Assembly: GCA_028715625.1 (NCBI GenBank)
Contig: JAQURL010000001.1
Coordinates: 36,345 to 100,344 of the forward strand
Source: Candidatus Margulisiibacteriota bacterium
Lineage (GTDB): Bacteria > Margulisbacteria > Riflemargulisbacteria > GWF2-35-9
DNA: 64,000 nt
Direction: 5' to 3'
Shown here: one piece after another, positions 10,564-12,437 of the stretch
Position numbering within the stretch: the stretch's first letter is position 1
How the letters are laid out: every line of letters starts with the position of its first letter
The notes under the pieces: generated by a model
The model's database searches: none
What the model saw: the letters and a program-made list of their open reading frames with translations, nothing else
What the model was told of the DNA's origin: nothing
Made by a program: the position numbers and the translations under genes

Positions 10564-12162
10564 TTGGGTAAAATTATGATAAAAGCTGCATCCAATAAAT
10601 ATCGATGGCTTATAAGCAGTGTATATTTTGTTCAGGGGATTGTAGTTATTACCGGCATGGCAGAATTTATTCTTACCAGAAATGCCTTCAATTTCTCATG
10701 GTTGCAACTGGCTTTTCTAAGTGCCTTAACTACATTGACCTGGTGCATTAAACCCATTTATGGATTTTTTACAGACCTGCTTCCTCTTTTTGCTCGACGT
10801 CGAAAACCGTATTTATTAATTTCTTCTCTGCTCACAACTCTAGGCTATATTTTTCTGGCTTTTTGGGGTACAAATTTTATGCTCATAACCTGCGCCTTGA
10901 TAATTATGAATATCGGTTTAGGTTTTTCTGATGTAATCATAGACGGTCTTGTGGTTGAAACATCTACTCCTGAAAATGTAGGTAAATATCAGGCTCTTTG
11001 CTGGAGGGCGAAAGCAACCGGAATACTTATAGCCTCATTATTGTCAGGTTTTATTCTGGAAAGGGCTGTGTTTTCCGGCTGGCTTAAAGGTACCAGCCTG
11101 ACCGGACTGTTGGCTTCTCTATTCCCTATGGCTTTTTCAACCCAGCTTATCGGCAATATTAATATCCTGGATATCAGATGTCTGTTCTTGTTCACAGGAT
11201 TGTGGCCCTTACTGGTCTTTGTTTTAACATTGCTTTTTAAAGAACCGCCTCTTGCTGAAAAGATTAAACATGATTTTCCTTCCGCATATATTCTTTCCGC
11301 GGTTTTCGCTTTTATATTAACCGCGCTTGTTATCATTTTTGCTTTAAGCACCAAGCCCTGGTTGCCCGGATTATCAAATGAAACCATTTCTTCTGTTGGG
11401 GTTATCCTCATCTGGAGTATCTGGATTATGTCCTATTTTGTGCACCTGATAAAACGCAAACAAGCCACTATGACCTTGTTTTATGCCGCCATTTTTTTAT
11501 TTCTATGGCGATTTACACCTAATTTCGGCGCGCCCTGGAGTAACTATTTCATAAATACTCTCAAACTTTCGCAGGAAAAATTGGGTTATGTAGCCACGCT
11601 CACATCTTTAAGCTGGATAATCGGTGGCTGGCTATATAAACAATTTTTTGATACATTTCCGATAAAAAAAGTTTTGTTTTGGACAGTTATTATAGGTGTA
11701 GTCCTTTCTTTTTCCCAACTTGCCATCGCTACTCCTGCTTTGGGCAATGCTATCGGAAATATCTGGATAATAAAGTATTCTGCGGCTATCCTGCTTTATC
11801 CTTTTTACTTTTTCGGTTATCACTTCGGATCATGGCAGGTGTTGATGCAACAGCCTCCTATCCTGAACCTGGACGCGCTTTTATCGTTTTTACTGGAGAT
11901 GATGTTTATGATTTCTTTTTTACCTTTATTAAAACTGGCGGCTCTTGTTACTCCAAAAGGAGTTGAAGCAACCAACTTTTCAATACTGGCCAGTGTAATG
12001 AACCTGGGATTAGCCTTCGGAAGCATTTCCGGGGGATTAATTTACACCTATCTGGAGGGACAATATCATTTGGCCGGCATTTCTTTTACCGGGCTGCATC
12101 TCACTATAATAATAGGAGCTTTAACCAGCCTGATTTGTTTACCGGTGCTGAGAAAGATTTAA
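10564..12162 (+). CDS. MFS transporter, folate-biopterin transporter (BT1) family (ATG at 10576 is the likelier start)
   Basis: 12 predicted TM helices. BT1-like motifs YFVQG, KPIYGFFTDLLPLFARRRKPYLL. Confidence 0.6.
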   Translation: MGKIMIKAASNKYRWLISSVYFVQGIVVITGMAEFILTRNAFNFSWLQLAFLSALTTLTWCIKPIYGFFTDLLPLFARRRKPYLLISSLLTTLGYIFLAFWGTNFMLITCALIIMNIGLGFSDVIIDGLVVETSTPENVGKYQALCWRAKATGILIASLLSGFILERAVFSGWLKGTSLTGLLASLFPMAFSTQLIGNINILDIRCLFLFTGLWPLLVFVLTLLFKEPPLAEKIKHDFPSAYILSAVFAFILTALVIIFALSTKPWLPGLSNETISSVGVILIWSIWIMSYFVHLIKRKQATMTLFYAAIFLFLWRFTPNFGAPWSNYFINTLKLSQEKLGYVATLTSLSWIIGGWLYKQFFDTFPIKKVLFWTVIIGVVLSFSQLAIATPALGNAIGNIWIIKYSAAILLYPFYFFGYHFGSWQVLMQQPPILNLDALLSFLLEMMFMISFLPLLKLAALVTPKGVEATNFSILASVMNLGLAFGSISGGLIYTYLEGQYHLAGISFTGLHLTIIIGALTSLICLPVLRKI

Positions 12163-12212
12163 TTTGTTGGAAAATTTATTTCCAGAGTAGTTTTGGAGCG
12201 GGAAAACGGGCT
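12162..12212. repeat. Direct repeat copy A: duplicated tRNA-Gly 3' end plus 3' flank (51 bp, 3 mismatches vs 12330..12380)
   Basis: atttgttggaaaatttatttccagagtagttttggagcgggaaaacgggct versus atttgttagaacatttatttctagagtagttttggagcgggaaaacgggct. Confidence 0.7.
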
Positions 12213-12329
12213 GTCCTCGGCTTCGACTAGCTCAGCCTGCGTTGCAATCCCTAAATTCCGCATTCTGCCTCATTAAGGGATTAGCCGAACCTCCGGTCCT
12301 CGCCCTTCAAAAATCTATTTATAAAATTG

Positions 12330-12380
12330 ATTTGTTAGAACATTTATTTCTAGAGTAGTTTTGGAGCGGGAAAACGGGCT
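12330..12380. repeat. Direct repeat copy B (overlaps the genuine 3' end of tRNA-Gly)
   Basis: See copy A. Its last 19 nt are the tRNA-Gly 3' acceptor/T-arm. Confidence 0.7.
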
Positions 12381-12437
12381 CGAACCGTCGACCCTAACCT
12401 TGGCAAGGTTATGCTCTACCAACTGAGCTATTCCCGC
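12362..12437 (-). tRNA. tRNA-Gly (anticodon GCC)
   Basis: Reverse complement reads GCGGGAATAGCTCAGTTGGTAGAGCATAACCTTGCCAAGGTTAGGGTCGACGGTTCGAGCCCGTTTTCCCGCTCCA: cloverleaf, anticodon loop TTGCCAA, encoded CCA. Confidence 0.85.

Follow-up and report, generated by a model that had tools for sequence, protein, structure and literature searches.

Within a 64-kb stretch of DNA from a metagenome-assembled genome (MAG) of Candidatus Margulisbacteria (hereafter, the window), the genes for tRNA-Gly(GCC) and tRNA-Leu(TAG) are each intact, and each is followed downstream by a second copy of its own 3' end. At both loci, the displaced copy is in direct orientation and the repeat runs from within the T-loop through the CCA; the DNA between the two copies is a short, unique insert of unusual composition. 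We give an even chance to the interpretation that both loci are vestigial integration scars, similar to cis-mobilizable elements (CIMEs) but far smaller. The tRNA-Leu locus lies 4 kb from the tRNA-Gly locus, and its existence as a second case makes a tRNA-directed, site-specific process likelier than a random rearrangement.

We located tRNA genes using ARAGORN and the Rfam tRNA model. All three tRNA genes in the window are on the minus strand, and Rfam 15, run on the whole window at gathering thresholds, matched just these three tRNAs (Table 1). Based on both programs and a repeat search, the proximal repeat at the tRNA-Gly locus (copy B) contains the last 19 nt of the gene, as had been proposed in an initial interpretation made without database searches (the sequence-only reading). 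The direct repeat at this locus is 54 nt long, with 93% identity and 4 mismatches between copies that lie 168 nt apart from start to start; it comprises tRNA-Gly positions 58-76 (19 nt, AGCCCGUUUUCCCGCUCCA, including the encoded CCA) and 35 nt of trailer. The sequence-only reading had described a 51-nt repeat with 3 mismatches and 32 nt of flank, which is accurate within the boundaries that it used, albeit short of the full repeat. Based on the tRNA alignment, the repeat starts between G57 and A58 within the T-loop, UUCGAGC. An exact 27-mer from the repeat occurs twice in the window and was absent from all 100 shuffles, which excludes a chance origin. The distal repeat (copy A) had been thought to start right after the stop codon of the neighbouring transporter gene; it instead overlaps this stop codon (TAA, 12160-12162), where copy B reads TGA.

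All 4 mismatches between the Gly copies occur in the trailer, within the first 25 nt of the repeat as read on the plus strand. The remaining 29 nt, consisting of the tRNA part and the first 10 trailer bases, form an identical block; by our own calculation, the chance that all 4 mismatches avoid this block is C(25,4)/C(54,4) = 0.04. The mismatch-free block fits an identity core where exchange occurred. The two trailers are ~89% identical (4/35 differences), and each contains a weak hairpin (-5.6 and -1.5 kcal/mol). Two of the 4 mismatches, at repeat positions 11 and 25, exchange a G-C pair for an A-U pair in this hairpin and are therefore compensatory; by a rough estimate of our own, such a pair would arise by coincidence with p ~0.01.

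The sequence-only reading also described the DNA between the Gly copies as a GC-rich insert of 117 bp. The composition holds (56% GC, compared with a window mean of 37%), and the length becomes 114 nt when the full repeat boundaries are used. The insert has two parts: a 21-nt AT-rich segment beside copy B (12306-12326) and a 93-nt core (12213-12305) that is GC-rich and purine-rich. The core contains two CGAGGAC motifs and a long central hairpin with arms at 12246-12256 and 12272-12282. Its fold z-score depends on the boundaries chosen: the core by itself gives -2.3, whereas folding it together with the repeat gives -0.6 to -1.0. We asked whether CGAGGAC, repeated within the insert, could be a 7-nt target duplication and whether an 11/15 match at 12286-12300 could be a T-arm-like sequence; by our own estimates, both are within chance expectation. 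We also rejected copy A as the remnant of a tandemly duplicated, decayed tRNA gene: its 19 nt are 100% identical to the tRNA, and the 57 nt upstream are ~32% identical (aligned by hand), a combination that does not fit gradual decay.

At the tRNA-Leu locus, a duplication absent from the sequence-only reading, the last 22 nt of the gene (UCGAGUCCCUCCACUCGCACCA, T-loop position 55 to CCA) are repeated exactly, 201 nt downstream, and the repeat has no trailer similarity. The unique insert between the copies has two CGAGGAA motifs with a spacing of 20 nt; at 16340-16350 it matches the tRNA-Leu T-arm exactly, in inverted orientation, over 11 nt, and the distal junction forms the palindrome GACTCGAGTC (16225-16234). 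Together with the distal repeat (16210-16410), the insert has a significant fold on the tRNA strand (z of -3.1 to -3.2) and not on the opposite strand (-1.2); for the insert alone, these values are -2.6 and -0.8. In relatives, the leader of metG is short and AT-rich, so the Leu insert is a lineage-specific addition. The same observation, along with the lack of a T-box among the Rfam matches, led us to reject a conserved metG leader or T-box.

The window contains only 4 non-tandem direct repeats of ≥18 nt with copies less than 5 kb apart, and the two best are the Gly and Leu tRNA-end duplications, which ties the phenomenon to tRNA genes. Both inserts are foreign in composition (55-57% GC, compared with 37% for the window), which favours integrated DNA; the tRNA strand of each is rich in purines, and in both the last three bases before the distal repeat are GAC. 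They share the 9-mer GAGCTAGTC, whose only two occurrences in the 64 kb are these, separated from the distal repeat by 12 and 24 nt. Each insert contains two CGAGGA motifs, and one more follows tRNA-Ser; these 5 sites, out of 10 on the minus strand of the window, fall within 446 nt. The presence of a common 6-mer in the Gly, Leu and Ser segments has a shuffle p of ~0.006, with the limit that CGAGGA was noticed by eye before testing. We identified no overall alignment between the Gly and Leu inserts (local p = 0.04-0.15; anchored right-end p = 0.02-0.2), and we rejected the Gly, Leu and Ser segments as a homologous family, as alignment was not significant and only short motifs were common to them.

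No Rfam family matched the inserts, either at E≤10 in the three regions downstream of tRNA genes or at gathering thresholds over the window. Further copies of the inserts, suggested by the sequence-only reading as a check, were absent from the 64-kb window and from ~110 kb of related loci. Neither insert has terminal inverted repeats, the sole structure of this kind being an internal hairpin; with duplications of 54 and 22 nt and no further copies in the 64 kb, a MITE-like element (miniature inverted-repeat transposable element) was rejected. ARAGORN at default settings detected no hidden or degenerate tRNA or transfer-messenger RNA in the inserts, and tRNA calls made under relaxed settings were judged spurious, with introns of 13-92 nt and several calls partly antisense to real tRNAs. 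Six-frame translations contained no convincing protein-like frame, and we therefore rejected a remnant of coding sequence, whether from an integrase or from the C-terminus of the transporter; the reading frame into the copy B TGA has a stop two codons upstream.

We used Logan contigs of run SRR22315506 as a second assembly; because these derive from the same reads, they are not independent. Contig L002 has the same sequence through both Gly copies, and contig L044 is identical at the Leu locus. Neither contig breaks at the repeats, so there is no sign of an abundant empty-site variant. In protein comparisons, the transporter and the methionyl-tRNA synthetase (MetRS) each matched a protein of a Candidatus Margulisbacteria MAG at 100% identity; the closest other sequences were 72% identical to the transporter and 71% identical to MetRS, and a 433-aa gene upstream of tRNA-Gly had a single homologue, at 37% identity, among 5.8 billion proteins. 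A contig search with the transporter identified one locus, at 72% identity and without a tRNA; in the relatives' contigs retrieved with the transporter, MetRS and 433-aa neighbour as queries, we identified no tRNA beside the orthologous genes. When a metagenome was scanned with the Gly 19-mer, 10 matches were chance hits in coding sequence and the other 5 were unrelated tRNA-Gly genes of high or medium GC content; none had a tRNA-end duplication. The Leu insert was searched against phage records only, with no match. Literature searches turned up no mobile elements for Candidatus Margulisbacteria. In a relative with a 65% identical MetRS (L027, 7947-9996), genes for an IS91-type Y2 transposase and a tyrosine integrase follow metG; recombinases thus occur beside metG in related sequence.

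The sequence-only reading had likened the Gly repeats to the left and right attachment sites (attL and attR) that a tyrosine integrase leaves at a tRNA gene. Elements that integrate into tRNA genes do so at canonical sublocations, namely the anticodon loop, the T-loop and the 3' end (bioRxiv 10.1101/2020.11.02.365908). In Klebsiella islands, most repeats extend from the T-loop to the CCA end and measure 15-221 bp, and the smallest integrase-bearing island is ~3.5 kb (bioRxiv 10.1101/2020.11.02.365908). Both loci described here have the 3' part of the tRNA in the repeat, an intact tRNA and a canonical sublocation, and both repeat lengths are within the published range. The comparison with attL and attR is partly supported: it is favoured by the geometry, the T-loop start, the repeat length and the recurrence at tRNA-Leu, and it is weakened by the lack of an integrase and of a matching attP, the attachment site on the element. 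The 114- and 179-nt inserts hold no credible open reading frame (ORF), and the 39 window ORFs scanned with Pfam gave no Phage_integrase match, so that none was found inside the bracketed DNA or beside it. CIMEs, the named category that comes closest, are elements that keep attL and attR after gene loss (PMC5704250), and judged on sequence alone, both loci resemble them in that both repeats are kept and recombination genes are lost. In work on tycheposons, partial tRNAs are interpreted as remnants of degenerated elements (bioRxiv 10.1101/2020.12.28.424599).

If both loci are integration scars, a tyrosine-integrase-type recombinase would have joined incoming DNA to the chromosome at the 3' part of tRNA-Gly. 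The incoming DNA would have carried its own tRNA segment, from T-loop to CCA, together with a tRNA-Gly trailer from a related lineage. This incoming copy would now complete the working tRNA-Gly (copy B, the attL side), and the original chromosomal 3' end and trailer would have been displaced downstream to form a dead fragment at the transporter stop codon (copy A, the attR side). A later deletion would have removed almost everything that had come in, leaving 114 nt, and an independent repeat of the process at tRNA-Leu(TAG) would have left 179 nt between the tRNA and metG. The duplicated ends are probably without a present role, and the inserts would be carried in the tRNA transcription units. 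The sequence itself shows the repeats, where in the T-loop they start, the intact tRNAs, the unique inserts with their odd composition and the recurrence at two tRNAs; that a recombinase acted, in which direction events ran, that DNA was lost afterwards and that no function remains is inferred. The ~89% trailer identity and the compensatory hairpin pair suggest that the trailer of the incoming DNA evolved separately at a related tRNA-Gly locus, which fits either an element that was once excised imprecisely from a relative or recombination, without an integrase, with DNA of a relative.

Several observations weigh against integration scars. The sequence to the left of each distal copy is unlike the T-stem 5' strand expected of a core-type site, and the Gly repeat takes in just 3 of the 7 T-loop bases, which means that the Gly exchange cannot have been centred on the T-loop and must have occurred further 3'. 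A foreign attP does not explain the similarity of the 35-nt trailers. Mobile DNA of AT-rich hosts is normally AT-rich rather than GC-rich, and both remnants, being GC-rich and purine-rich, and in the case of Leu structured, look less random than decay predicts. A Pfam scan of 39 ORFs across the window identified no integrase or other recombinase; these ORFs encode housekeeping functions, one XRE regulator and an AAA ATPase, and the neighbourhood of both loci consists of housekeeping genes. The Gly core, junction and insert had no attP match in phage records, plasmid records or IMG/VR; an integrase gene sharing the att core, which the sequence-only reading had proposed to look for, was not seen among the 39 window ORFs, and no phage or viral contig carried the att core as an attP. 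The Leu 22-mer had 15 viral matches, all of them complete phage tRNA-Leu genes. Relatives with ~70% protein identity are non-syntenic and offer neither an empty site nor a polymorphism.

Other explanations account for parts of the same evidence. The 168-bp and 201-bp units could be complete miniature non-autonomous integrative elements, each a repeat with a structured GC-rich module, moved into and out of tRNA sites that span the T-loop to the 3' end by a recombinase encoded elsewhere in the genome or on a helper, which we regard as unlikely. Two units of similar size at two different tRNAs, a size near that of a complete attP, the 9-mer GAGCTAGTC found in both inserts, their common GAC ends and the clustered CGAGGA motifs, which could be candidate arm-type sites of a recombinase, are all consistent with this explanation; however, the inserts lack overall alignment, the CGAGGA motif was first picked by eye, no other copy was detected in the sequence searched, and no recombinase gene was seen. 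DNA circles of <200 bp are, moreover, poor recombination substrates. Quite unlikely, in our view, is a family of sub-200-bp, integrase-less elements at the T-loop-to-CCA segment of tRNA genes, each with a GC-rich, purine-rich, co-transcribed RNA module. The additional proposal that CGAGGA and GAGCTAGTC are the shared recognition motifs of such a family, with an RNA module structured on the tRNA strand, likewise seems to us to have little probability. If such a family did exist, its members would be either smaller than any known element that integrates site-specifically or a new class of RNA linked to tRNAs. The inserts might instead be functional structured RNAs transcribed with the tRNA, either small RNAs derived from the trailer or modules for processing, termination or stabilisation; we consider this rather improbable, and we are just as doubtful that the copied tRNA 3' end supplies a tRNA-like 3' terminus and trailer for maturation. 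High GC content in an AT-rich genome points to selection or recent arrival, and the tRNA-sense strand folds beyond shuffles for Leu and marginally for Ser and the Gly core. In the Gly insert, GGGCGAGGA pairs with UCCCGCUC of the copied acceptor 3' strand, and in the Leu insert, GUGCGAG pairs with CUCGCAC of the copied acceptor 3' strand; both pairings extend up to C74. We found no separate promoter for the inserts, so they would be read through from the tRNA promoter, and any metG expression from the tRNA-Leu promoter would require transcription of the Leu insert. On the other hand, the inserts match no Rfam family at E≤10, the Gly z-score depends on boundaries, no homologue was found anywhere, and relatives have no such leader before metG; without a T-stem 5' strand, the copied fragment is unable to fold into a tRNA-like minihelix, and a functional RNA leaves the identity to the neighbouring tRNA 3' end unexplained.

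An origin without any integrase also seems unlikely to us. DNA of a related strain or species, with tRNA-Gly, its trailer and other downstream sequence, would have entered by homology-facilitated illegitimate recombination or template switching; anchored in the tRNA and joined illegitimately, it would have left the 3' end duplicated. The trailer of copy B is a diverged version of that of copy A (4/35), the similarity stops at the transporter stop codon, and neither a recombinase nor an attP was found. A compensatory hairpin pair is expected of orthologous, separately evolving trailers and not of a duplicate decaying in place; however, the hairpins are weak, and the pair may be a coincidence (p ~0.01). 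Illegitimate joins, furthermore, should fall anywhere, and by our own estimate two of them would both fall in the 7-nt T-loop with a probability of ~(7/76)^2, or <1%; the two independent breakpoints within this loop therefore argue for a directed process, and the Leu repeat lacks the trailer similarity that characterises Gly. We think it very improbable that the arrangement is an assembly artefact, for instance one in which a conserved tRNA k-mer led to a chimeric join. The genome is a MAG, and contigs L002 and L044 stop within the 5' half of tRNA-Gly and of tRNA-Leu, respectively, which shows that assemblies of this sample branch at tRNA k-mers; these ends likely arise from k-mers common to other organisms in the sample. 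However, two assemblers are base-identical through both repeat copies and both inserts, which makes an assembler artefact unlikely even though the reads are not independent. In addition, 4 positions distinguish the Gly copies, each insert is unique, and the expected single-copy genes flank each locus.

Table 1. Features of the tRNA-Gly, tRNA-Leu and tRNA-Ser loci, with positions in the 64-kb window
Feature	Position	Strand	Basis or remark
Intact tRNA-Gly(GCC), 76 nt, CCA encoded	12362-12437	-	ARAGORN; Rfam tRNA model full length, 67.7 bits
Promoter-like site of tRNA-Gly, TTCAAA-17-TATAAT	12486-12458	-	Sequence
Proximal Gly repeat (copy B)	12327-12380	-	tRNA part 12362-12380, trailer 12327-12361; attL side in integration model
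Trailer hairpin in copy B, UAGAA/UUCUA	12336-12352	-	Strand folding
Unique Gly insert, 114 nt	12213-12326	-	117 nt by the boundaries of the sequence-only reading
Distal Gly repeat (copy A)	12159-12212	-	Displaced tRNA positions 58-76 at 12194-12212, plus 35 nt of trailer; attR side in integration model
Trailer hairpin in copy A, UGGAAA/UUUCCA	12168-12184	-	Strand folding
BT1/MFS-family transporter gene, convergent with tRNA-Gly	10576-12162	+	Pfam BT1, E = 6.7e-42
Intact tRNA-Leu(TAG)	16411-16493	-	ARAGORN; Rfam 60.3 bits
Proximal Leu repeat, 22 nt	16411-16432	-	Exact 22-mer, 2 occurrences
Unique Leu insert, 179 nt, 55-56% GC, purine-rich	16232-16410	-	Sequence
Distal Leu repeat, exact 22 nt	16210-16231	-	20 nt upstream of metG start codon
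metG	Start codon 16189		Pfam tRNA-synt_1g, E = 2e-154
tRNA-Ser(GGA)	24003-24091	-	ARAGORN; Rfam 56.3 bits
Structured segment directly after tRNA-Ser(GGA), 51% GC, possibly related	23860-24002	-	One CGAGGA motif

The tRNA-Ser region (23501-24091) has an 11-bp hairpin directly after the tRNA and ~140 nt of structured sequence, for which the fold z-score is marginal (-1.8 to -2.6). We identified no duplicated tRNA-Ser end in this region, even when 3 mismatches were allowed; the segment could be a small islet that has lost its distal repeat. Beyond it are a gene of the XRE family with a helix-turn-helix domain (23501-23722) and then two membrane-like ORFs without Pfam matches.

Other features of the window lie outside the three tRNA loci. 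A GC island at 21718-21892, just past the mnmE stop codon, has 62% GC overall, peaking at 72% when measured over 80 nt; it contains four perfect hairpins, its fold z-scores are approximately -3 on both strands, and it has no Rfam match; on the minus strand, it terminates in a GC hairpin followed by UUUUUU. This island could be an undescribed small RNA or a cluster of palindromes. By eye, we noted an imperfect direct repeat of ~50 nt at 21856-21905 and 22294-22343, each copy having a hairpin and then promoter-like hexamers (TTGAAT...TATACT and TTGATT...TATAAT) upstream of small ORFs without Pfam matches; it looks like a duplicated terminator-promoter module. A small lipoprotein-like gene on the minus strand (10058-10246) has a low-complexity mature part rich in Ala, Pro and Gln that is encoded by tandem repeats of 9-15 nt, and this tract accounts for a 65% GC island at 10050-10202. 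Finally, a glutamyl/glutaminyl-tRNA synthetase ORF of 397 aa (46205-47398), whose catalytic domain was matched by Pfam in two separate stretches, could be a truncated or frameshifted gene or else an unusually short version of the enzyme.

Overall, we regard the two loci as an unusually small, recurrent example of an already known kind of feature, most likely a scar. If they are scars, recombinases that target the T-loop acted repeatedly in Candidatus Margulisbacteria, tRNA-Gly(GCC) and tRNA-Leu(TAG) are integration hotspots, and an element in a streamlined genome can shrink to approximately the size of an attP with both repeats surviving. If the inserts are instead mobile or expressed, they would define how small an element that integrates site-specifically can be, or else a new RNA linked to tRNAs. 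The Leu insert is situated in the leader of metG, an essential gene.

Among known systems, small RNAs from tRNA 3' external transcribed spacers (3'ETS), such as 3'ETS-leuZ of Escherichia coli, are structured segments located directly downstream of a tRNA. The inserts are similar to 3'ETS-leuZ in their position within the presumed tRNA transcription unit, without any sequence relationship to it; to our knowledge, no duplicated tRNA end is involved in known 3'ETS small RNAs. The attL and attR of islands and prophages at tRNA genes share with both loci a repeat from T-loop to CCA, a regenerated tRNA and a displaced 3' fragment in the same orientation, and the repeats of 22 and 54 nt fall among published lengths. 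However, the bracketed DNA measures 114-179 nt here and at least ~3.5 kb in the smallest integrase-bearing islands surveyed; the inserts carry neither an integrase nor other genes and are GC-rich rather than AT-rich, and the Gly repeat additionally spans 35 nt of non-tRNA trailer. CIMEs, which are decayed integrative and conjugative or integrative and mobilizable elements (ICEs or IMEs), have, like both loci, repeats on both sides, no recombination genes between them and the potential to serve as accretion targets (PMC5704250); whereas known CIMEs are kilobase-scale and recognisably derived from ICEs or IMEs, the inserts described here retain nothing recognisable. In the tycheposon islands of Prochlorococcus, which has a small, streamlined genome and lacks most classical mobile elements, partial tRNAs beside full tRNAs are traces of older integrations (bioRxiv 10.1101/2020.12.28.424599). 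Those partial tRNAs are scattered in multi-gene islands with integrase fragments, whereas the units in this MAG are isolated, sub-200-bp and situated among housekeeping genes.

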